A model generated the notes under the pieces. The model was not told the DNA's origin and ran no database searches. It worked only from the letters and a program-made list of their open reading frames with translations. A DNA stretch of 64,000 nt from Raja brachyura (lineage: Eukaryota), in NCBI GenBank assembly GCA_963514005.1, contig OY740810.1, positions 24,056,001 to 24,120,000 on the forward strand, written 5' to 3'. Each line of letters begins with the position of its first letter. Within the stretch, counting starts at the first letter, position 1. The translations under genes were made by a program, and so were the position numbers. This document shows positions 10,201 to 28,200 of the stretch, in pieces.

Positions 10201-13200
10201 GAAATTGATGGACTTTGCCAGGTCCGTCATGGGTACTAACCTCCCCACCTTTAAAGGAATCTACAAGAGACACTTCCTCAAAAAGACAGCTAATATCATC
10301 AAAGGCATTCTCTGCTCACTCCAATCATTGGGAAGAAGGTACAGGAGCCTGAGATCCATGACCTTCAGGTTCAAGAACAGCTTCTTCTCAGCAGCCACCA
10401 GGCATTTGAACACCACAACACCAACCATGATTAACTATAGATTTTACTTAGGTTGCACTACATACTTTGGTTTTGCATTATTATAATCTGCTTACTGTGT
10501 ATTACTAACTGTTGCTTTAGTGCATTACTGATTATTGGCATTGGCCAAGTGATTGGCCATTATTAAAGCGGAGATTGAGAGGTTCTTGAATTGTAAGGGT
10601 GTGGTTATGGGGAGATTACAGAATGAGATTGAGAAGGAAAGATAGATCAGCCATGATTGAATGACGGAGTAGATTCAATGGGCCAAATGGCCAAATTCTG
10701 CTCCTGTGACATATGAACTTGTTCATTTATTTGTGTGTTGTTGTGTGAATAGGCCTGTAAAGCTGCAGCAAGTAGAAATTTCATTATTCTGTTGTGGGTA
10801 CATTTGACAATCAAACACTCTGACTTTTGACTTGTCCTTAAGGTAATATAAAGAGCAACAAATCCTATCTAGTCTCCAAATATCTTATCCAAATGTTGAG
10901 AGTCTGTATTTATTTGTCTCTGTACTCCACAATTTGAGATTTGTAATAGAAAAAAAATCACATTTGATTAAAGTGCACACTGTCAAATTTTATTAAAGGC
11001 CATTTTTATACATTTTGGTTTAACCATGTAGAAATTACAGCTGTGTTTGGGACACATGGCTTCACAGGTGTTTGTAATTGCTCACGTGTGTTTAATTGCC
11101 ACCTTAATGCAGGTGTAAGCGAGCTCTCAGCACCTAGTCATTCCTCCAGCCTTTTCATCACATTTGGAAACTTTTATTGGTGTTTATCAACATGACCAAA
11201 GTTGTGCCAATGAAAGTCAAAGATGCCATTATGAGACTGAGAAACAAGAATAAAACTGTTAGAGACATCAGCCAACCCTTAGGCTTACCAAAATCAACTG
11301 TTTGGAACATCATTAAGAAGAAAGCTTACTAATCGCAAAGGGACTGACAGGGCAAGGAAGACCTCCACAGCTGATGACAGAGCAATTCTCTCCACAAAAA
11401 GAAAAATCCCAAAACACCCATCTGACAGATCAGAAACACTCTTCAGGAGTCAGGTGCGGATTTGTCAATGACCACTGTCCACAGAAGACTTCATGAACAA
11501 AAATACAGAGGCTACACTGCAAGATGCAAACCACTGGTTAGCCGCAAAAATAAGTTGGTCAGGTTACAGTTTGCCAAGAAGTACTTAAAAGAGCAACCAC
11601 AGTTCTGGAAAAAGGTCTTGTGGACAGATGAGGCGAAGATTAACTTATATCAGAGTGATGGCAAGAGCAAAGTATGGAGGAGAGAAGGAACTGCCCAAGT
11701 TCCAAAGCATACCACCTCATCTGTGAAACACGGTGGTGGGGGTGTTATGGCCTGGGCATGTATGGCTGCTGAATGTACTGGCTCACTTATCTTCATTGAT
11801 GATACATCTGCTGATGGTAGTAGCATAATGAATTCTGAAGTGTAAAGGACACATCCTCTCTGCTCAAGTTCAAACAAATGCCTCAAACCCATTGGCCGGC
11901 AGTTCATTCTACAGCAAAACAATGATCCCAAACATACTGCTAAAGCAACAAAGGAGTTTTTCAAAGTTACAAAATGGTCAATTCTTGAGTGGCCAAGTTA
12001 ATGACCCGATCTGAACACCCAGCAATGGGTGATGTCCATGAATCGCAGACTTCAAGCAGTCCTTGTATGCAAAGGATAAGCAACAAAATCCTAAACATGA
12101 CTACTTTCATTCACATGACATTGCTGTGTCCCAAACATTATGGTGCCCTGAAATGAGGGGACTATGCATAAACATTGTTGTAATTTCTACATGGTGAAAC
12201 CAAAATGTATAAAAATGGCCTTTATTAAAATCTGACAATGTGTACTTTAACCTCATGTGATTTTTTCTATTGCAAATCTCAAATTGTGGAGTACAGAGGC
12301 AAATAAATAAATGATGGGCCTTCATCCCGAACATTATGGAGGGTACTGTAGCTGAATGGCGAAGGCAAGAATAGAGACTGAAAAATTGGTCATGCCAAGT
12401 CAAGTCAAGTTTATTCGTCACAAAAACATGCGAGATGTGCAATGAAATGAAAAGTGGCAATGCTTGCGGATTGTGCAAAAAAACTACAAAACAGAATGGA
12501 ACAGAATAGCAGCATTGCCCCTGCTGGCTTGTCATCACTGAGTTTTTATGTTCCCAATATGGAAAGAATGGTTGGACCTAAACAGTTTTGGTTGCTTGTC
12601 GATGATTTTCTGTTATTCAGGTATTAAATGCAATGCATTCTATTTATATTGGTTAATTGTGATTGAATAAACCAGCAAACCCCTGTCGATTCGGAGTGGC
12701 GGCGCTGCTTGTCAGCTGCGGCTCACCTGCAGACCGTCTGTCTTTTATTTTATTTTTGTCCTCGTCCCTGTTTTTGGTGTTTATTTTTGGTTTGTTGGGT
12801 TGTGTATGTGTGTGTGTGTGTGTGGGGGGGGGGGAGGGTGGGAGAAACGGGGTTTTAGTCTCTCCCTTCGGGGGGATGCGACTTTTCCTGTCGTGTCCCC
12901 CGACACCGTCTCCGTCTGTGCTGAGGCCGTGGTGACGGCCTTCCAGCTTCCAGCGGCGGCGGCACGGCCTTCAGAGCTTCAGCGGCGACCTGGCTTCCGG
13001 CGGCGACCTGGGTTTCGGGAGCTGCGGTGCTCCAGCGGCGGCCTGGGTTTCGGGAACTGCGGTGCTCCAGCGGCGGCCTGGCTCCCTCTGAGCTGCGGTG
13101 CTCCAGCGGCGGCCTGGCTCCCTCTGAGCTGCAGTGCTCCAGCGGCGGCCTGGGATTCGGGAGCTGCGGTGCTCCAGCGGCGGCCTGGCTTTCGGGAGCT

Positions 13201-16200
13201 GCGGTGCTCCAGCGGCGGCTTGGGTTTCGGGAGCTGCGGTGCTCCAGCGGCGGCCTGGCTTTCGGGAGCTGCGGTGCTCCAGCGGCGGCCTGGCTTTCGG
13301 GAGCTGCGGTGCTCCAGCGGCGGCCTGGCTTCCGGGAGCTGCGGTGCTCCAGCGACGTTCCGGCAGCGGGCCCTGTGGCGGTGTTCCGGCGTCAGCGGTG
13401 GCGGCGGCCTGGATCCCCTCAGCGCAGAGGGAGAATAAGGAGGGGAGAAAAGACAGAGACCCTAAGACTTTTGCCTTCCACCACAGTGAGGAGGTGTTTG
13501 GTGAACTCACTGTGGTGGATGTTAATTTTGTGTTTATTGTATGGTATTGTTATTTTTATATATGTATGACTGCAGGCACGAAATTTTGTTCAGACCGAAA
13601 GGTCTGAATGACAATAAAGGCATTCAATTCAATTCAATTCAATTCAATCTCAAACACAAGCGATTCACATGCATGTCAACATTTTTTATGAAGGAAATGT
13701 AATTTAAATGATTAATGTTAAATTAGAGGAGTGCAACATATATAGATTAATTTGATTTGTCAAACTTTACCAACTTGTCACAACATATGGATGTAAAGTA
13801 TGAGGAAAGTTAGAACATTATGGGTAAAACTTTTGAGTTAATAAACTCTTCATCATACCTAGAATTCCCATGTCATATTTTCCTTCTTTTTTGTCCTTCT
13901 CAATAAGATAATCAAACGTGTCGGTAAAATATTGAAAAAGTGCATTTTGCTTGTGAACCTCCAGTCCAAGAATTCGATTCAGGAATTTTGTGATGCTACA
14001 GTCTGAAAGCAAACATAAAAAGCCTGTTAGCATAGTTTCACTACAGATTTTAAATCACCTCTTAAAACAATAGAGCAAGCTCCTTTATTAATTGGTCCAT
14101 ATTGAATCTCTCAGATTATCTGGGAGTCTCTCAGAGTTCGGAATAAACCCCATTGTTGCCACGAATCTGGGGGAAATAGGCAGGCTGAGAAAAGGAAGAG
14201 CTTTGAGGGCAATGAAAGGGGTTTGGAAATAATTTTGTTAGTGGTGGGAACATTTGGGGAAGGAGAATGCCTAGAAGCTAGCAGATGTTTCTCAGTCAAT
14301 CAGCATGTATATTTTCATAAGTTTCACATGATAGTGTCTTCTTCACGAGTCAGTATCTGACTCCAAATAATTAATATTGTGGAAAATAAAACGAATTACT
14401 GCCTAATTAAAGTGTTTTACAGAGGAAGATTATTATTAAGATATAAATGATTGCAACGTCTTAGTTCAAAACTTATTTCTTAGTAAATTGCATCAGCACC
14501 AACCAATTCCTCAAAAAGGCAGCTAATATCACCAAAGACTGCACCACCTTAGCAATGCACTCAGCTCATTACAATCATCGGGAAGAAGGTACAAGAGCTT
14601 GAGAACAATGATCTTCAGGTTCAAGAACAACTCCTTCCTAGCAACCATCGGGTTTTTGAACACTGTACATTCCCAACCATGATCAACTATAGACTTTAAA
14701 AAAAAAGGTTTCAAATGTAAATAAGATCTGTATGTAGAACATCACTCAAGCGGAGATTCAAAATCATTTATTTATTTCTTACCTTTCTCCACATTTACGT
14801 ATCCATAGCGGTTTTCTTTGCAGAATATTCCCACAGCCATCAATCCTATCCTCATGTCTGTAAAAGATATACGACGTGATAATTTCTTGGCTGAACATCA
14901 TATTTTACAAAGCTGGATGTTATTAACATATAAAGATAATGTCTTCATTGCTTTATGATGTAGACTTATTTTTGATGTAAATCATAGTTTACTAATACTG
15001 ATGTATTAACAAGCATGTTTCTAAATAATGCATTTTTGAATACAAAAAACTTGTATTTGATTAAATGTTAATGGACTGTTAACGTTACATGCAAATCTCA
15101 AACTAATATTTTACCTTCAATAAAATTAATTGGGCCTCCAACATAATCTTTTGGTGGTTGCACTTTATTCTCAACCTGGCCTAGTATGGTTTTAATAACT
15201 TTATCCAATGCCCTGGTTCCATACTGTAAGGAAGGAAAAATATAATCAGAAAAAAATATTCCACCGTAAATTTCAAATATGAGGTTACTGAGGTTGGTTT
15301 AACATTGTGCATCCAATGTGGATTTGATATGAAAATTGAATCCTAATTTTGTGACAAGCAGTTTGTTTAAAAAATCTTTCATCTTTCCTCCTCTTAAATC
15401 CTCCTGTACGTCTCAACAATTAAGGAAAAAAATCAGAGTGGAGGGAAAGAGAGAGAGATAGAGAGAGACTGGTCAGAGAACTAGGATGGGATGGAGAGAG
15501 AGGGAAAGCAAGGGTTACTTGAAGTTAGATAAATAAATATTCATACCACTGGGTTTTAAGCTGCCCAAGCGAAACATGAGGTGCTGCTCCTCCAATTTGC
15601 ATCAGGACAGAAAGGTCAGTGTGGGAATGCAGGACAAAGCCTGGTAAGTGATAGGTAGATATAGATGAGGGGGGTTTTGATAGACAGATGGATAAAGGCC
15701 AGAGACGGCAAAAGGTGAGAGATAAGGATAAAGGTAGTGCAAATTGTGAAGCCAGAGGAAGAAAAAGGGAGGGCGGGGACTCATTACCTCAAAATCACTC
15801 TGGAGCACATATGCCCAAACTTATTCTTGGTTGGTTCATTAGCCAGCTTTACACTTCCTTGGGTTAAATAAATTATGGCAGTGAAATGAAGATATTACCT
15901 TATTATCAAAATTATATTTGCTGAGGTCTCTGGATTCTGTTGCCCTCCGATCACCGTGTGTCAAAGCACCCTGACAAAGGAAGAGATTTGCAATTCTAAT
16001 ACTGTCAAAAATAGTTTTAACATCTTTAAGCAATGTTGATGATGTAATAAGTTTTGAACTTTAAACCTCTTTATTCTAAATTAATCACATGTAGCCAGTC
16101 AAATGTTTTTCCCAGGGTGTAAATGTCAAAGACTAGATGGCATAGCTTTAAGGTCAGAGGGGGAAAGCATTAAAGGACATATGCAGGGCGGTTTTCTTTT

Positions 16201-19200
16201 ACAGAGTGATGTGTGCTGGAAAGCTTTAACATTGGTGGTGGTGGCGGAAGCAGATAAAATAGTGATGTTTAAGAAGTTTTTAGATTCCTGCTTTGTACTT
16301 TTCTATGTTCTATGTGCAGGCATAGGAGATTAGTTTAACTTGGCATCATGTTCAGGACTGAGAGTAAATGTTGATGGCAGGAAATAAGAACGTGTAGTTT
16401 TCTCATAAACAGTCTAGCGGTATTCAGGGATTGGAAGTCTTGCACAGTTGGCAGATTTCATAATTAATAATCTGAATAGTTAGCTACAGAAAAGGCACTG
16501 GATGCCAAACATAGTCTGGATTACTGATACATTGATTTGAAAAGTATAATGAAACACGATTAAAACGTGAAACACGTGGTGAATTCTCACAAGAACGATG
16601 AACATCTCTCTGCACTTTATTTTAGGTACAGTCTAAGTCACTAATGTGCCACCAATTCTTTTTTTTTTAATATATAAGAAAAATACTGCAGATTGCCACT
16701 TCAAGGAGAGGAAGGATCTGCCCATAGTTGTTTAATGAGAGGTGATAGTTCAGTTTAGTTTAGAGATACAACGAGGAAACTGGCCTTACGGCCCACTGAG
16801 TCCACGCCGACCAGCAATCCCTGCACACATTAGGGACAATTTACAATTTTACCGAAGCCAATTATCCTACAAACGTGTGTGACTTTGGAGTGGGAGAAAA
16901 CCAGAAGAACTGGAGAAAACCCACGCAGGTCACGGGGAGAACACACAAACTCCACACAGACAAACGCCATACAGGCAGGATCGAACCCAGATCTCTGGTG
17001 ATGTGAGGCAGCAACTCTACTGCTTTAAAAAATGTTTAAAAAATGGTTTTCGCTAGAGTTTAGATCCAGTTTCAGTTTTGCTGTGAACAAGCTGTAAAAC
17101 ACTTACACTATAAGTGAACTTCTGCAAAGGGGTAATTAATGCACTGAAGAAGAAAAAAGATATTACCAGACTCTCTAAGCGTTTTGCAACAATGGAGGCA
17201 AATCTCCTTTCTCCTGCAAGTTCAGAGATGAGGAATATATATTCTGGAGCTGACACCTGATTTGACCTATGAGTACGACCTGAAAAAGATAAAGTAAATG
17301 AAGTTTATGCACGAATCATGAATTCAATTGCATTCATACCTTGGGATAACACTGATCACAAATTGCTTAAAAGGTCAGTATTTGATGTGATAACTCTCAT
17401 ACATTTACTAACTAATGCCAAAAGGTTCTGGCTCTCCATGGGTAATGTTAAAGAACAAAGAACATTGGGTATTCGCCGTTAAAGTGGAGATGAGGCCAAT
17501 TCTTAAGGGTCATACAAGCAACTCCTGCTCCTAGTTGTTATGTTCTTAACCAGGAATTACATGTTGTTTGACATCAGAAAGTAACAAAATGTACTCTCTT
17601 TGAACCACAAAAATAGAATAAAACTTTTATTAAGTGTTTACTTAATTAGGATAAACAAGGATTACAAATGTCAGGGTAGTTGCTGGTAAACTACTATTCT
17701 CTGGCCCATGGATAATCTTTTAACTTGGACAGACTTTAAAACTGGATATCTTACTGTAGATTAGTGGCTCATGCTATGAGTCATGCATTTGTTGTTAGCG
17801 TCGCGGTCTGCTGCATTCTGTTAGTCTTAAAGTGAACTCTCCAGTGAGAACTTGTGTTGCTTATTCCTAATAAACTCTATATAACCTGACATGGTGTGAG
17901 GCCATTATTATTACAAGGACTACAAATCAATATGGTGTCAGAAGCAGGATACGAACCCACGCCTCCAATCGGAGACCAGAACTTTCACCACATCACCAGC
18001 AGCCCTGAATATCCAGTCTAACGGGCTGGCTGAACGGGCTGTGTGAAGTGCAAAACAACTCATGGAGCGCTCTCACAGGGCTAAATCTGACAAATTCCTG
18101 GATTTGCTCAATTTACGCAACATTTCCCGTGACCCTGCCTTGGGTTCACCTGCTCAACGATTATTGTCAAGGCAGACCCCTATCCTGTTGCCCGTAGCAG
18201 AGCAAACGTTAATCCCACATGTCTTTCCTCCTGAAGAGGTTCAATCCAGGTTGCAACAGAAGCGTGACGTTCAAAAGAAATGGTTCGACAAGACGAGTAG
18301 GCCTCTGCCGCCATTGACCAAAGGACAGGTGGTCCGCTTACAAACTGACAAAGGCCATGACCGTATTGGGGTGGTTTCTGGTCCTGCTTCAGAGCCACGC
18401 TCGTACATTGTTAGAGCCGATGGCGGCACTACCGACGCAACAGACATCTTCTGCCTGTGAAGGAGCCAATCCCTCCTCCTTATTATCCAGATCGTACAAA
18501 TTCATTTCAATCTGTATCTAGTGACCCTCGCATGCTCTTGCCAGCACAACAATCATTCATGCCTGTGACAGTTCCTCTGTCTGTTCCATCTTCGCCTGCG
18601 CCACAGTTTCCTGCTTCGACTCCAGAGGCGTTGGTCCACTGCCTCACGGCGGTGATATCACCAGCTCTGTCCCCAGAGAAGAGGAATGGAGATGGTCTCT
18701 ATCGTACACGTGTGGTCGCGTTTGCAGGCCGGCCGTAAAGTATCCGGACTATGTTTGACTTTACACATGTCCGTCATCGGTTGTGATATTTGCGTTGCTT
18801 AGTTATACATAACTTGCTTTGCTCAGTATACATTGTTATTGATTCTTTCAGAGGGGGGGGGGGGGATGTAGATTAGTGGCTCATGCTATGAGTCATGCCT
18901 TTGTAGTTACGCCTGCTAGCTTGTTAGCGTCACAGTCTGCTGCATTCCGTTGTCTTAAAGTGAACTCTCAAGTGAGAACTTGTGTTGCTTATTCCTAATA
19001 AACTCTATATAACCTGACATGGTGTGAGGCCATTATTATTACAACGAATACAAATCAACACTTCCCACCTGAGAATACTTTTTTTGATCCAAATTGCTCC
19101 TTACTGATAGTGCACAAGATTAATTAATACCTTCTTCAGAAATAAATGTCTTTGGTTTCAAGCAGAAATTTGTTGATATTTGGGCTTGTTACTGCTACAG

Positions 19201-22200
19201 ATAGCCAAGTGTGAGCAAGCCTTACCAAACTGTTGAATCGCACGGTCTGCACTCCAAGGCAATTCCAGGGTCATATGCACTCTCCTCCGCTGGTTCCTTA
19301 TTCTTTTGTCAGCCTGCAGTGAAATGCCTGAACTGGCTGCTTCTGAGATGATGGCGACCAACTTGACAGATGTAAAAGAATATTTATTACTTAACTCAGA
19401 TGTACTGTTATAAACTGTTACATGCGTGGTATCATTCCCATAATAGCAACTTCACCAGAACAATCTATACACTGTATCAATGGGCACTGAGACATTTCCC
19501 CAATGTGCAGGTTGTGGTATGGTTAACAATGCAGGGATATTGGCTGGTTGAGTTTAGTTTGGTTTAAAGATACAGTGCGGGACCAGGCCCTTGGGCTCAA
19601 GGCTGCGCCGACCAGTGATCTCCGTACCCTGCACTAACCTGCACATTGAGGAAAATTATTTTTTTACCGAAGCCAAATTAACCTAAACACCTGTACATCT
19701 TTGGAGTGGGGGTGGAAACGGGAAATATTGGAAAACCCCCCACGAAGGCTCGGGGAGAACGTACAAACCCTGTACAGATAACACCCGTAGTCAGGATTGA
19801 ACCCGTTTCTGCCTGTAAGGCTGCAACTCGACCGCTGCATCACCGTGCCGCCCCCAGTGCCACCGTGCTATTGAAACATGTTGGGATCACACTCCTCTTC
19901 ACCATATACACCACAGTATATCTATTTACTGATATAGACAGTGAGAAACAAACCTACCTTATCCCCATTCATGAATCGCTCCTTTTCCTTTAAATTTATG
20001 TGGTCAATGGTCAGATTTTGTTCTGCTCTGGACTCGTAACAAACTGAGCCATCTGGTTTGCGAACAACACGACCCTTTCTTCCAGTCATCTATTAAAATT
20101 AATGATTTACATATACGGTAAATGTTAATATGATCACACATTCCCAGAACCCATATGTCACTGACAGAACATGATCTGCAGGGCTAAGGGATAAGCTAGT
20201 GCGACTAGGACTGACTGGATTGTTGCAAAGTTTGGTACGGACTTGTCCTGCTTTAACCACAGGATTACTATGATGATTAATGCCTGGGTCATCATCAGGT
20301 GAATACCAGTGTCATAACCAGACTGAAACAGCATGACTGGAGGCACTGTTCTCTCTTGAGTGTAGGCTTCACTGTTGTCTGGTCCTTTCGCCTCAGCTGT
20401 AACTGAATTGGCTTCTGAAATGATGGGGACCCACAAAGAATGGGGATATTTCTTGGAACTTTCTCCTAACATTAGCTGTTTGAGTCTCCACCACTGTTCA
20501 CCTTTTCCAGTTGTTTTCAATGCCACTGGTATATATTATGGACTGAACATTTGAATGAGAAACCAAATGCCACGAGTTAAATTTACATAATGTGTCTTTA
20601 ATTCTCCATCCGATCCACAGGCTCATCCACTTATGACAACAGGTAGCCAAGCCACACAGCTGAAGCAGTGGACATCAGCATCAACAGAAAAGGAAAGACA
20701 GGCATCAGCTTGGAATCCTGGACCTGATTGCTTTTCAGTGATCCAATTGATTGTGTATCGACGACAGGTTAGTTAAATGACTGAGCTTTTACTCTCGCGG
20801 AACAGCTAATAAAAAAGATACAAAAGGGGGAAAAACTATGATTGAATCTTCCTCCTTTCTTGAAAATATTGATTGATTATTGGTGTTGGTAGGTGTCTGT
20901 ATAAAGGACTGGTGATTAATAATGTCCTGCTGGTTTGTTTTAGAGTTTAGAGAGACAGCGTGGAAACAGGCCCTCCGGCCCACCAATGCACGTTGACCAT
21001 TGATCACCTGTACACTAGTTCTATGTTATCCCACTTTAGCATCTTACACAGTTGGGGCAATTTCCAGAAGCCAAGTAACGTACAAATCTGCACATCTTTG
21101 GAATGTGGGAGGAAACCGGAGCACCCGGAGAAAACTCACGCGGTCACAGGGAGAACGTACAAACTCTGCACAACCAGCACCTGTAGACAGGATCAAACCG
21201 GGTCTTTGGCGCTATGAGGCAGGAGCTCTCATGCTGCACCACTGTGCCGCCCTGTGCTACTTTGAAGGACATGATGCCCAAACAAAATGCAATACATTTT
21301 CTCCTCCCAAGCAAATCATCTATAGTATTGCTGTCGTTGCAAGTGAGTAGTGTACATTCTGGGTTTGTGTGTTCTGGTACCATAGCAAGTAATCACTTAT
21401 AGAGCAAATACAAAGGCAACTTCAGCCATGAGCAGTCTTTATAAATTACCTCAGCCACATAGTCAGGACCACCGAACAAGTCAATTAGTTCATCCAGTGT
21501 ATTTAGAGGTAGTTCTTTGCCGAGTATTTCAACCTTCGCCAGCAGATCCCCTTTCAGTTTTTCCACAAATTCTAGTGTTGCTGCTGATGAAAAATAATTC
21601 ATCAATCAATCAAAATCATGCAAGATCACTCAGAATGTTTGAACATTTACATTACTCTTGCTCAAAGAACAACATGCAGAAAATTGTATTCCATAAGAAA
21701 TGATGAGTAAATAGCCAACATTTCCGTTTGTTAAAAACAAATAATTTACCAGGGTTGGAGGCAAGTCAGTAATAATAAAGGTATACATTGCAATCTATTA
21801 ATACTGAACTATCAGAGACAATGCTTAAATCTGCTTTATCCCTGATGCTGAAGATAGATACAAAATACTGGAGTAACTCAGCAGGTTATGCAGCATCTCT
21901 GGAGAAACAGGATGGGTGACATTTTGGGTCGTGGGTCCTCTTCAGATTGAAGTCATGGCATCATCTTTGGCTTGGACATTGTAAGCCAAGCGGCCTGTTT
22001 TTGCAAAGTCCTGCTCTAGGATCCAAATTCTACAAATAAAAGTGCTCCCTTTGGCCAGACAGTGCTGGAAATGGAATCCTGATGAGTCTAAATCAGCTTA
22101 TCTTGTGCTCTTGAGAGCTTTGGTCGGGAGTCAGTGCTGGAGGATAATGGCTGGATTTTTGATTGTTTTCAATCAATTGATTTTTGATGTCAGAATGGTT

Positions 22201-25200
22201 ACCATTTCCCTCCAAACTTTCTTCTCACCAATCATACTGGAGGTTCCAGCATCTTCATTTCCTTGTATCTCCATACTGAAGAGAAATTATTTCAATTTCA
22301 GACTTGTTATTTTCAATGTAAATTTGGTTGATTAACTTGCCTGCACGAAACATGCAATGTATTCAAGCTAATATTTTTAAGGATATCACTTTTACAAAAT
22401 CACTTGATTCAAAGTCCTCTGTAAATTTTTGTATAAAGTTACTTTGTCTTTTCTTTTCTTTAGACCTGCCATGCCATATACATTGTATCTCAATTGAAAA
22501 GGCATGACGATGAACTTCCAGGCTTGACTGATTAAAACATTGGCTTGGCACGAGTCTCCCTTCCTCTGGTCCCGTGGATAACTGCCTGCCGTATAATCTT
22601 CTAGCATTGCATGGGAACACAATCTCAATGCACTGAAAGTCGAGAGTGTAAACCGTATTTGACTAATGATTTCCATGATCCATTCTTTGGAAATTATTAC
22701 ATTAGGTAGTACCTTTTTCCATAGATAGAAAACCATTAAAGGGTGGATCCACAGCAATGACATCAGCCTCTTCAGATATCTCTATGGCAGATGCAGGTGA
22801 TGAGTTTAAATCACTGTCAGTTTCAACCTCAGAATCACAGCTGCTGAAATCACTATTTAAGTAGTTGCAATCCTGAACATTTCGAACTTGTTTCGAGGGC
22901 CGGCTTGGTGGTTTTCCTATGGGGAAATATTTAAGCAAGGATATAGTTTATAAACAATATTAGTGTAAAACTGTTACGTCACAAGAACAGAAAATCATTT
23001 AACTAAAACACTGCTGGCACTCCATTACTGATCTATTTTAGATATGACACAAAATGCTGGAGTAACTCAGCGGGACAGGCAGCATCTCTGGAGAGAAGGA
23101 ATGGGTGATGTTTCGGGTCGAGACCCTTCTTCAGACTGATGTCAGGGTTGTGGGCGGTACAGAGATAAAATGTAGTCAGAGACAGTAAAACTGGTAGGAG
23201 AACTGGGAAGAGGTAGAGGATGGAGAGAGAAAGCAAGGGCTACTTGAAGTTAGAGAAGCCAATGTTCATACCGCTGGGGCGCAAGCGAAATATGAGGTGC
23301 TGTTCCCCCAATTCGTACGAGGACAATGGAGGAGGCCCAGGACAGAAAGATCAGTGTGGGAATGGGAGGGGGAGTTAAAGTGTTGAGCAACTGACCTATT
23401 TATCTCGCATAGTTGTGATATTTCTACCACATACAAATTATGGGACAGTCTAAAATTTGTTTTAAAAAATGAACAAAGTGCTGGAGTAACTGATCAGTGG
23501 ATCAGGCAACATCTCTGAAGAACATGCATCAGTGATGTTCTGGGTCTGGATCCTTTTCCAGAGATGCGGCCTTGAACCAGAGAGTTACTCCAGCACTTTG
23601 TGCCTTTTATTTTTTAAACCAGCACCTGCAGTTCCTTATTTGTAAATTTGGTAAACTAGAAATCAAGCAAGATATACTGTAAATGCAGACTTATTTGAAA
23701 TACTCCATTTATAACAATCTTACATAAATTGTTTGAGCTTGCAGCTATTTAAATGCAAATGAGACTAAGTGGCTAATTTACTGTATTTGATGTCATGATG
23801 ATTGGCAAACAGTCACTCAATTAATGTAAGAGTTCCAAGGAACACTAAGACTGAGAAACATGACAATTCTTGCTGCTGAGTCATGACAAGATACAAATAA
23901 TGCATATTCAAATTCCATTGAAATAAATTTCAGGGTGTGGCGGCACAGTGGTAGAGTAGCGGCCTTTCACAGTGGTAGAGTAGCTGCCAGAGGCCTGGGT
24001 TCGATCCTGTCTATGGGTGCTGTCTATGTGGAGTTTGCACGTTTTCCCAGTTTCCTCCCACAATTCAAAGATGTACCAGTTTGTAGGTTAGTTGGCTTTG
24101 GTTGTAAATTGTCCCTAGTGTGCAGGATAGTGCTAGTGTAGGGGGATCGCTGGTCAGTGAGGACACTGTGGGCCGAAGGGCCTGTTTCTGCACTGTATCA
24201 CTAAACTAAACATTGTGTTAACAGTGCAGTGTGATCAATGTATTTGGATTTCACTTGAAAACTTCTTCCTTAAGTTGGAATTGCAGGCAGAAGATCCAGC
24301 CACAATTTCCCCGGCAGCAATATAAATAGGCCAGAAAAAAGAGAGCAGAATTCTGGCTCAGTTCGCATCTGTCCCAAATGTTAGGACCACCATCCCAACA
24401 AAATCAGGCTTTTTGGCTTTCTTCAGTGTTAGTTACTCTGAGCCTAAACTTACCAACCACATGTTAGTGGAAAGTAGGGTCACATTGCAGACAATGAACA
24501 AAGAAGCACAAATCCACCGCGATCTGTATTTTTACTCAGAAAAAATTAGCTGTAATGTTATCTTACGTTTCCTTTTCGTCCCAGCTCCCTTTTCTTTCTT
24601 TCTCTTTGTTGAAGGAAAGTGCTTCTGAATTAGTGACTTAAAGACGCCTCTGCAAGGAGAAAGCAAAAGTTGATCCTGTTACTTCGAATTTTAATTTAAA
24701 ACTGATTTATTAATAGTACATATCAAATAAAGTGAAGTCACGATGAAAAACATAAACTGTTAGATAAAACAAAATATACAAATTCTCTTGTTCATTTTAA
24801 ATTCCTCAGTCGAAAATGAACAAATCTGCTGTGCACTCCTATGAAATTGGTCCAGCAGAAGCAAGTTAACAGCACAAGACTCTGATTTATCTTCAGATCG
24901 TATACAGTGCCCTCCATAATGTTTGGGACAAAGACCCATCATTGGTCAATTCTTGAGTGGCCAAGTCAAACACCAGATCTGAACCCAATCGAACATGCCG
25001 TTTACATGCAGAAGGGAAAACTGAAGAGGACTAGCCCCCAAAACAAGCATAAGCTAAAGATGGCTGCAATACAGGCCTGGCAGAGCATCATCAGAGAAGA
25101 CACCCAACAACTGGTGATGTCCATGAATCGCAGACTTCAAACAGTCATTGCATGCAAAGGATATGCAACAAAATACTAAACATGACCACTTTCATTTACA

Positions 25201-28200
25201 TGACATTGCTGTGTCCCAAACATTATGGTGCCATGAAATGGGGGGACTATGTATAAACACAGCTGTAATTTCTACATGGTGAAACCAAAATGTATAAAAA
25301 TGGCCTTCATTAAAATCTGACAATGTGCACTTTAACCACATGTGATTTTTTTTCTATTACAAATCTCAAATTGTGGAGTAGAGGGGCAAATAAATAAATG
25401 ATGGGTCTTTGTCCCAAATATTATGGAGGGCACTGTAAATCTTTCGCATATTACTAAATATTCCTTTACCTGGGCTGCCAAAGAATCTATCTCTGCGTCC
25501 AATTCAAAATGTCAAAGATTATGTGACTCAAATTTAGATGTGCGGGGGAAGTGTTTTTACACATAGTGGTTGGTTCCTGGAATGCACTACCAGGTGTGGT
25601 GTTGGAAACAAATATGATCGTGGCATTTAAGAGGCTTTTAAATAGGGCATACGATATGCAGGGAGTGGAGGGATTTGGATCATGTGCAGAAAGAGAAGAT
25701 TAGTTTAACTTGGCATAGACATTATGGGCCGAAGGGCCTTTTCCTCTGAGACCCATTAGGACATCCACCTATGACCACACCTATGACAACCTATGTCCAC
25801 CCTCGACAAGGTACAACCCTGTCAGTAACAACTGAAGACAAATCAGTCGCCGGTACCTGTTGCCGGTTGACGTAGGTAGTCGCCAATGGAAATCACCAAA
25901 GTCAGCACCGGCGACAACCTACGTCATCCTGGCGACAGCACCCACGTCAGGCTATGATCGTTGGCGTCAACCCCTTGGGCGCTGACTGTCGCCGAAAAGT
26001 TTTGAACATTTCAAAATCCAGTGGCGACCAAAAAAAAGGTACAACTCTTAGGGCGACTGAGGAGACCATACAGGCGACACCCTGGCGACCGCCTAGTCGC
26101 CTAAAAAATCGCCTAAGTGGGACAGGCCCATTATGATATTTTATGATCTGTTCATTGTATTAGATAAATTATAATGCCTGTGATTATCATGTTGTAATTT
26201 CCTTTGAGTAAAACACCACCTCAAATATACATACAAAAACCATTTGCCTACTGGACCATGTGGCCGAAAGCTGAGAAGATTGGAATGGCAAAAGCTGAAG
26301 GGCCTGCGACTGTTGCTATTATAACTAGCGAATTTCACATTAAAATTATCTATTGCCAACTAGCTGGTTCATCCCTACAGTCCGACATGTTTTTTCTAAG
26401 TTATTCAATTTTTGGGGATCTGTATGCCAATAGAGATCTGGGACTTTAAGTTTCCAGCTGGCTTTCCCTAACTTGGAAGGTAATGGTGAGCTGCCTTCTT
26501 GAACGTTTTGTTCTTCTGGTGAAAGCACTCCTGAAGTGTTGAGTAGGGAGCTACAGGACTTTGACGCTGGAGTTCACACCCCCCCCTCCCCCCACAAGCC
26601 TGCATACGTGAGGCGTAAACGCAACTCGCTAACCAGGCAATGAGAGTTTGCGCCTCAAGTATGTAACAAAAGTCTGTAGCTTCCTTTTGCTCTTCTATTT
26701 TCTTTCTTTCTTCACATGTTTAAATTATGTTTTATTTTTAATTGTCTACTGTATGTCGTGTTGTTACTTGCTAGCAAAGCTCCAAGGTAAATTCCTTATA
26801 TGTATTCATGCTTGGCTAATAAAATTTGATATATTTCCAATTCAGGATAGTGTTCAGCTTGGAGGGTAACTTGCACGGATGCCATTCGCCTGCTGCCCAT
26901 GTCTTTGATGAGGGTAGAGATCCCAGATTTAGGAGAAGCCCGTCGGAAGGATGTGTAGGGAATAATTGTACAGTTTCATTGATAGAATACCATTCAAGTG
27001 AGCTGTTTTCTCCTTTGATAACAAGTTAAAAGAAACGCTGGGACACTGTGACAAAAATTAAGCTTTGGGTGTTAATTATATCACATCGAACTGTCCAAGT
27101 GTGATTTGAAACCTGGTTCTCAGAGCTCAGCAGGGATTCTTCCAAACTGGTGTTTTCAGTAGTAATGACATTTCCTGGAAACTAACTGACACCCATCACT
27201 GAGTAACCATTTTTCATGGGTGACCTAGTGGGTGATGACAAACGCCTATCTGTACGTGAGGGAGCTGCATTGATGTTTAATTCTGACCTGGATTCACAAC
27301 CTCTCACATGCACAATGGTGCTGCTGGCTTATGAGCAGAAATGGAAATGTTGCCAAAATGTTCATGCTTATTCCAGCATTGACACCGATGACGGTTTAAT
27401 ATCGGTGAACTGGGTCGTATTAAGTGATTTATTATGAGGAAGAATCAATTCTCGGGCTTGGTCTGTCCAAATTACTACTATCTAGTAACTTTATGGAAAT
27501 TACACGGTCCGAGAATATAACTTCAAAATGTAAATTCTAAGAACTGTAAAAAACTTGTTTAAAGGTCACAGTTATTTATAAACATGTTAGTTTTAGCATT
27601 CAGAGCTGCTTATGTAAACATTTTTGCAAAGGTCAATGATAGTTACATGCTAGTATACATAACTGCAACTTTCAGAAGAGAATCACTGTGGGTAAACTGG
27701 ACATTTTATTTCAAATTAACATTAAGTAACCTCTGCACAATAAAATAAAATATATTAACTTATATACAATACAACACATTATATTTTATTGTTGTTAAAT
27801 GTCTTGTATTTTAAACTAAAAGCATTATATTGTTTTATAACTTGTTGAAACTACGTCAAAATTGCAACCAGATAGTCACAACATATACACAAACTGAACC
27901 TCTTTAATCCAGCAACATTATAGTCATCGAATCAGCTAGGCATCTTTAACTTACTCAGCAGCAGATACAAATTGGTTAAGATGACCATCATTCTCATCAA
28001 GTACTTCCCGTGTCCGAGCTTCACCTGTGGACTGCAATCCTATAACAACGCACTGGAATGGATAAACAGTAAAGTGCAATTAGGTCATGGTGAAGATTGT
28101 CTGCACATTTAAAGTCACTTCCCACAGTCCTCAATGTAGGCAAGTGGACTCCACAGACCCCAATGCAGGCAATGTAGGCAAGTCCGCAATGTAGACAAGC

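Follow-up and report, generated by a model that had tools for sequence, protein, structure and literature searches.

Plus-strand strong-stop DNA that carries a copy of its tRNA primer has been described for Ty3 and for HIV-1. Excerpts of the Ty3 report (PMC5371799) describe tRNA-tailed strong-stop DNA as a dead end, with a tail of 12 nt that is not inherited. In HIV-1, the modified base m1A58 of the primer and its position 37 are where strong-stop products end (excerpts of PMC13191261); those ending at position 37 are called unusable, and longer ones are called nonintegrating (PMC13191261 and PMC8599865, in the parts that treat these products). Sites at which reverse transcriptase (RT) misreads or stops include m1A58, m3C at e2/47d, m1G37, and m2,2G26 in the available sections of three tRNA studies (PMC8062790, PMC9072684, and bioRxiv 10.1101/2024.01.30.575011). 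Within the same sections, m1G37 is reported for human Leu(CAA) (bioRxiv 10.1101/2024.01.30.575011 and PMC9072684), and reports of m3C in the variable loop concern Leu(CAG) and Ser but not Leu(CAA) (PMC9072684 and a zebrafish preprint). Mutations in the primer sites of mouse endogenous retroviruses do not match modification positions, according to excerpts of PMC7472051. The Steamer/C-clade Gypsy elements have a 12-nt Leu primer site, LTRs of 150 to 220 bp running from TGT to ACA, and a length of about 4.5 to 5 kb, and families are assigned to the clade only by tree (excerpts of PMC8905726). Excerpts of PMC7197481, PMC9278108, and PMC6088434 hold nothing directly on tRNA read-through fossils, and we found no report of genome-wide fossils of this kind in a literature search that covered subscription and older papers thinly.

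Here, we describe an element in a 64,000-nt stretch of skate DNA (Raja brachyura, contig OY740810.1; the window, meaning this whole stretch), along with the genome-wide class to which it belongs. Our main reading, to which we give a probability of roughly 0.78, is that the RT copied the attached, spliced, modified tRNA-Leu(CAA) primer past its normal stop and then reprimed inside the element. The likeness to Ty3 and Ty1 is that of a Gypsy-type element in which a portion of the tRNA primer is copied into the first plus strand and the native primer site can persist unchanged. In contrast to the 12-nt tail of Ty3, tails of about 18 to 62 nt are integrated here in hundreds of copies; because long tails are integrated and near-native copies have primer sites overwritten to 15 to 18 nt, a strict Ty3 route seems not to hold. 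The HIV-1 products P2 to P5 are alike in their stops at m1A58 and at the modified position 37 of the primer. However, as the excerpts present them, those products come from in vitro reactions or mutant cells, whereas the skate copies are fixed in the germ line and carry misincorporations, lack stops at positions 54 and 55, and show an added site in the variable loop. The positions that trip RT are those known from the excerpted tRNA sequencing studies, except that the enzyme here would be that of a natural retrotransposon and the readout is genomic DNA. The Leu primer-site sequence, LTR size, and length agree with those given for Steamer and the C clade, near which we place the element by these features and not by a tree; the passages of PMC8905726 on these elements do not mention extended primer sites.

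The element and its tRNA-Leu(CAA) copy

The element lies antisense within an intron of a Strawberry notch homologue, both flanking exons of which match PF13871, and it reads as an internally deleted Gypsy LTR retrotransposon with the following features (positions are those of the window).

17167 to 17280, minus strand: host exon of the Strawberry notch homologue (PF13871; approximate, Pfam-matched part)
17750 to 17754, plus strand: left target-site duplication, 5 bp, with one difference from the right copy
17755 to 17932, plus strand: 5′ LTR, paired with the 3′ LTR
17933 to 17950, plus strand: 18-nt primer site, complement of tRNA-Leu(CAA) positions 76 to 59
17945 to 17946, plus strand: two primer-site letters at which every host gene differs, common to one other copy of the same LTR family
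17951 to 17981, plus strand: read-through copy that takes in the T arm, variable arm, and 3′ anticodon stem (tRNA positions 58 to 38)
17951, plus strand: A opposite tRNA A58, where 13 of 13 genes give T; putative m1A58 misincorporation
17968, plus strand: A opposite the variable-loop C, where 13 of 13 genes give G; putative m3C-type misincorporation
17979 to 17984, plus strand: junction zone, five of six letters in common with the sister integrase; exact break point ambiguous
17985 to 18849, plus strand: decayed 3′ part of the integrase, which begins within the rve core, together with the 3′ untranslated region
18212 to 18218, minus strand: 7-nt complement to the 18-nt primer copy's end, where five sister elements join inverted
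18850 to 18866, plus strand: polypurine tract, by sequence reading
18867 to 19060, plus strand: 3′ LTR, paired with the 5′ LTR
19061 to 19065, plus strand: right target-site duplication, a 5-mer
19209 to 19394, minus strand: host exon of the Strawberry notch homologue (PF13871; approximate)

The two LTRs are identical at 169 of 177 aligned positions, with one 17-nt and one 1-nt gap, and the 934 bp between them consist of the tRNA complement and the 3′ part of the integrase; gag, protease, RT, and RNase H are all absent, as the initial annotation had stated. Ty3/Gypsy features of this copy are its paired TG..CA LTRs, primer site, polypurine tract, and short target duplication, and its Leu primer site (TGGTGTCAGAAG) and LTRs (150 to 220 bp, TGT..ACA) are of the C-clade/Steamer-like kind. 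A full-length relative from another LTR family of the same class measures 4,712 bp with 203-bp LTRs, which fits the 4.5 to 5 kb of C-clade/Steamer-like elements, and it encodes RT, RNase H, and integrase in Gypsy order (PF00078, PF17917/PF17919, PF17921, and PF00665); its gag open reading frame (ORF) had no Pfam match. Two integrase fragments of the window element had no Pfam match either, and their identity comes from sister copies, whose translation matches the homologous, rve-positive ORF (PF00665) of the full-length relative. The integrase that had been annotated at the junction is therefore upheld through the sisters and not through the window's own fragment.

Behind the 5′ LTR, the primer site continues from 17933 as the complement of tRNA-Leu(CAA), as annotated, for 49 to 52 nt. 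The copy had been drawn to 17984, and it stands up to 17981; the last three letters are ambiguous, since the intron also starts with C on that strand and TT is also integrase sequence. Because five sisters match the tRNA for only 9 to 10 nt, the 18-nt primer site itself was probably copied from the tRNA. Neither the window nor the sequence around the element gave a tRNA call with ARAGORN or Rfam. Two further statements about the primer fared differently: a CCA tail had been deduced from this primer site, which is uninformative given that native primer sites already begin with TGG, and splicing is not readable from the window locus alone but is borne out by the class, as described below.

We compared the copy with the host Leu(CAA) genes, which were sought by pattern and direct reading because ARAGORN miscalled the intron-bearing ones; a 5′-exon pattern found 12 genes and a second pattern found two more. 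An intron follows position 37 in every gene listed. The comparison covered the 13 of 14 genes that passed the match filter (one degenerate gene was left out), and in each of the 13, position 58 carries the normal letter and the variable loop has a C, in agreement with the intron and normal base at 58 that had been expected of them. The variable-loop C lies in the loop of the arm with U after it, which fits the position and context of m3C e2/47d. Over columns 4 to 49, the window differs from the closest two of the 13 genes at four positions (17945, 17946, 17951, and 17968). The A at 17951 had been annotated as a mismatch to tRNA position 58, and it is one, with T in all 13 genes; it is not the single mismatch that was claimed, and 17968 is the second genome-wide hot spot. 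The C at primer-site column 13 (window 17945 to 17946; also L363, L053, and L364) recurs in four copies, two of which also have A at column 14; an older isodecoder or mutation with CpG decay may account for it.

Probable read-through copies across the genome and their junctions

A search of the genome gave 318 exact extensions (primer site, any letter, and 12 tRNA letters), 715 near-exact extensions (35-letter pattern with up to two mismatches), and 1,334 intact 18-nt primer sites; since reversed-pattern controls gave 0 matches for each of the three, the extension is not due to chance. Read-through was seen in 13 of 30 intact primer sites (the first 30 of 1,334, judged by eye with decay allowed), and the share of intact primer sites that are extended is about a quarter to two fifths. 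A separate search with the junction returned 360 candidates, 40 of which were scored, and all 29 other loci fetched carry the tRNA copy behind an LTR-like end; they come from several families, and their downstream sequences differ in all except one pair. A pattern for other primers, limited to one T-loop form, had 496 matches, of which 99 of the first 100 were of Leu(CAA) type.

We examined 160 of the at least 715 loci in detail. LTR-type CA ends precede the tRNA copy in 151 of the 160, with the copy in primer orientation and starting at the CCA end, and sorting the LTR ends gave 46 clusters, many with a single member that may be a decayed copy. One read-through locus is present twice, 9 kb apart (L208 and L209), through local duplication or an assembly repeat, and was counted once. 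In a young family with 201 exact LTR-end matches, we classified the first 30 copies, picked by LTR end alone: 9 were read-through copies, 7 had an 18- to 20-nt copy joined elsewhere, and 14 ran into the normal leader. Family members without the extension, which the initial annotation had left to be looked for, thus exist (these 14 of 30 in one family and all full-length copies examined). Among the near-native copies of the young family (10 of 14 measured), primer-site forms of 10, 15, 17, and 18 nt coexist, with the 10-nt form in 3 of 10.

The template was the spliced tRNA and not the gene: 11 copies run over the spliced anticodon junction into exon 1, and no element copy enters the intron, all intron-type matches being genes. 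Six of these 11 end at positions 27 to 28, three at position 33, one at position 29, and one past G26. Most copies of the class stop before G37 or before G26, where m2,2G26 is expected, and 18 of 24 unselected copies that reach position 38 stop there, in line with the stall near the anticodon loop that had been proposed from the window. From the loop to position 38, copies drop out steadily at about 5 to 18% per column, and 10 of 95 copies end at column 35. These end-point peaks depend in part on our calling rule, which assigns a copy to the column before a modified base if it misreads that base and ends within three bases of it.

The microhomology proposed at the window was not recovered in its original form. 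The integrase landing site in eight related copies reads GAATTT in seven and GAATTC in one, and GAACTT, which holds the AACTT expected of the parent integrase, in none; read literally, this is a result that the initial annotation had set as a refutation. Given that the sisters read GAATTT, the exact overlap at the window is 3 nt (end at position 38, with a later silent change) or 2 nt (end at position 35), not 5 to 6 nt, and it reaches 5 of 6 only with one mismatch. Across the class, the general idea held. Sisters of at least 90% identity were available for 44 of the 160 loci, 6 of which were set aside because the match began 1 to 2 nt later, and the remaining 38 direct joins had a mean overlap of 2.74 nt versus 0.74 nt for random placement (P value = 8 × 10−5), with at least 3 nt in 19 of 38. 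Several joins carry unexplained or templated insertions.

Landings in the young family span 221 to 3,528 nt behind the primer site of the full-length relative, some of them inverted and some with insertions, and the longest matches (8 to 9 nt) draw repeated landings. Almost every copy has its own junction, which answers the question of how many copies share one: a single pair among the 160 loci has its first junction in common, and its two members carry different letters at position 58 and differ in all later joins. We read this pair as two events, since the common site is a 9-nt match and position 58 and the later joins differ. Most flags for shared junctions were artifacts of a loose filter and, when inspected by eye, proved to be nearby but different landings. 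The suggested route to nonautonomous LTR elements is not borne out by this lone pair, and no amplified nonautonomous lineage of TRIM or LARD type, with a common junction and internal structure, was found among the 160 of at least 715 loci.

Sixteen unselected copies were extended to about 6.5 kb: eight have a 3′ LTR (six of these with exact target duplications) and eight lack a full 3′ LTR, one of which is a mini-element with an exact target duplication. Six mini-elements (L033, L086, L133, L161, L219, and L298) are built from a single LTR, the tRNA copy, and a short stretch that repeats the tip of the LTR; they rejoin their own LTR tip, so that the right end is about 10 to 30 nt of tip, and are flanked by exact 5-bp target duplications. 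Such mini-elements would be annotated as solo LTRs. The young elements L301 and L302 have identical LTRs and are stitched together from three to four pieces of gag-pol, one of them inverted, suggesting repeated template jumps within one round. We discarded autointegration circles as a source of the inversions, as the joins follow the tRNA tail and not the LTR tip.

In the main reading, plus-strand strong-stop DNA would read through the modified primer beyond position 58, with misreading at m1A58, at an m3C-type loop base, and at m1G37, and synthesis would stop before G37 or G26. Because the match of the native primer site to the tRNA spans only 10 to 15 nt, the resulting tail of 18 to 60 nt would have an unpaired 3′ end, and because this tail cannot pair at the native site, it would prime wherever 0 to 9 nt match on the element cDNA or RNA, sometimes repeatedly or in inverted orientation. 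Integrase would then insert the misjoined product, in keeping with the intact LTR tips and 5-bp target duplications that are seen. The read-through copies are by-products without functional structure, and they look like dead-end strong-stop products that were rescued and integrated.

Which activity made the joins is the point at which the closest alternative departs. It accepts read-through and misincorporation and has the tail joined to a truncated 3′ half by nonhomologous end joining or polymerase theta after a failed second-strand transfer; the two LTR-bearing halves would be integrated or kept together before joining. Overlaps that peak at 2 to 3 nt, with none in 8 of the 38 direct joins, are what such repair would leave, as are the templated duplications, inversions, and multipiece patchworks and the lack of a nearby full 3′ LTR in 8 of 16 copies. 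Against it, five further sisters of the window element (L290, L291, L292, L293, and L020) have an 18-nt primer copy that lands on one antisense 7-nt match to its end (18212 to 18218) and then diverge, returning to the sense strand at different points, so that this site acts as a mispriming hot spot without read-through. Moreover, matches of 8 to 9 nt attract repeated landings, and six mini-elements have only about 10 to 30 nt of LTR tip yet exact target duplications, which would be easier to explain if the join preceded integration. The hot spots and mini-elements thus favor RT as the joiner, and the blunt and inserted joins favor host repair; we regard joining by the host as a serious but distinctly less probable account than repriming by the RT.

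Errors at fixed tRNA positions

To describe the errors of the read-through copies, we took as an unselected set the 99 copies left from the first 100 exact matches once a duplicate had been merged. At column 19, which corresponds to tRNA position 58, this set has A in 49 copies, T in 37, C in 9, and G in 4, so that position 58 is wrong in 62 of 99; the read-through past position 58 with misincorporation that had been proposed for one locus thus extends to the class. At column 36, the variable-loop C, the 52 unselected copies that extend past the loop have A in 36, G in 8, T in 4, and C in 4, so that 44 of 52 are wrong. In a set anchored on both flanks (n = 76), there were 49 differences at column 19, 70 at column 36, and 16 of 1,216 elsewhere, that is, 64 to 92% at the two columns versus a background divergence of 1.3%; because this 76-locus pool was partly selected on the letters at the columns in question, the unselected set provides the unbiased figures.

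All four letters are found in two of the three main isodecoder classes in the unselected set (three of four letters in the third) and in all three classes in the full set, and the skew at the loop site is present in each class. Young copies that reach column 36 (LTRs at least 99% identical) have a mismatch there in 4 of 4 cases. In the 11 copies that cross the splice junction, G37 is represented by C in 5, A in 4, and G in 2, and 6 of 11 are wrong. Errors at position 58 and at the loop site were uncorrelated (Fisher P value = 0.28, n = 52), which gives no support for two distinct primer pools. Errors and end points are confined to sites of Watson-Crick-face modifications, and the four positions concerned (58, the loop C, 37, and 26) are the classic ones at which methylation blocks RT. 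Read in the tRNA sense, T is the usual misreading of both m1A and m3C. From the positions and letters, we infer that the errors stem from m1A58, an m3C-type variable-loop base, and m1G37, the modifications being named by their positions in the literature. LTR families differ in the Leu(CAA) isodecoder copied, and the correct letter at position 58 was present in 8 of 34 versus 13 of 21 copies of two LTR families, in a sample partly selected on that letter.

The loop-site difference could instead be tRNA sequence, derived from extinct or unassembled isodecoders with U or from C-to-U editing. A, which corresponds to U in the tRNA, is indeed the commonest letter (36 of 44 loop mismatches), isodecoder use varies among LTR families, so that the gene pool has changed or been selected, and assemblies can miss tRNA genes. 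However, the loop letter is C in all 13 genes compared, a pattern left open at the loop column gave only G among intron-bearing matches, the skew recurs in all three isodecoder classes as well as in young copies, and U cannot account for the letters of 8 of the 44 mismatches. We therefore consider this origin unlikely and retain misreading of a modified base.

The long tRNA complement is very improbable as a functional, inherited extension of the primer site or as the founder of a nonautonomous lineage, even though the extension is frequent (the quarter to two fifths given above) and HIV has a short primer overextension sequence in the excerpts of PMC13191261. In one family, 14 of 30 copies run into the normal leader with no such extension, none of the full-length copies examined has it, its length, error letters, and landing sites vary from copy to copy, and the lone junction-sharing pair differs at position 58 and in its later joins.

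LINE-made tRNA retropseudogenes do exist and the loop change is a transition, but LINE-made pseudogenes or SINE heads at primer sites, or ordinary mutation behind the mismatches, are scarcely credible for copies that open precisely with the CCA end, immediately after LTR tips (151 of 160), always in primer orientation, with 64 to 92% divergence at two columns against a background of 1.3%.

What the copies may record

The ingredients of the main reading are known from HIV-1 read-through, from the dead-end tails of Ty3, and from deletions by transfer error reported in older work; what appears to be new is the scale and the putative recording of several modifications. Pulsinelli and Temin reportedly described in 1991 deletions in retroviral vectors through strand-transfer errors, in a few laboratory clones and with no genome-wide natural population or modification readout, and the basic mechanism may therefore be older. 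On balance, we lean toward the view that this Gypsy clade routinely integrates dead-end strong-stop products, in a quarter to two fifths of its primer-bearing copies, and that the genome is thereby a datable, single-molecule library of germ line tRNA modification.

RNA modifications leave no trace in DNA, and their history and germ line levels are therefore hard to reach in nonmodel animals. Under our reading, each copy would stand for one reverse-transcribed tRNA molecule dated by its LTR pair, and the copies together would provide spectra of read-through and error for a natural Gypsy RT at work in vivo. A new modification site is predicted within Leu(CAA)'s variable loop, and its writer is given as unknown in the excerpted part of PMC9072684. 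Faulty second-strand transfer can explain a large share of insertions (16 of 30 copies mistransferred in one family), which is relevant to the question of why most copies left by such families are deleted ones, and of whether transposition is curbed by short primer sites or by tRNA modification.

Elsewhere in the window, there is a tandem array of about 13 copies of a 35-nt unit (12949 to 13405), and repeats with 41-nt inverted ends, like those of a DNA transposon or MITE, lie at 12015 to 12350, 24903 to 24943, and 25100 to 25437. Among the host genes, L152 is a divergent, intron-bearing Leu(CAA) gene with paired variable-arm changes and a different intron. Six intron-bearing Leu(CAA) genes are clustered within about 21 kb (G000:C13:9469492-9489935), several of them with a changed T-loop letter, and several of the six may be inactive. 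Lastly, L366, the sole copy of the 11 that passes G26, has the gene-encoded letter at position 58, the loop C, position 37, and position 26, and was possibly primed by a spliced but unmodified tRNA.
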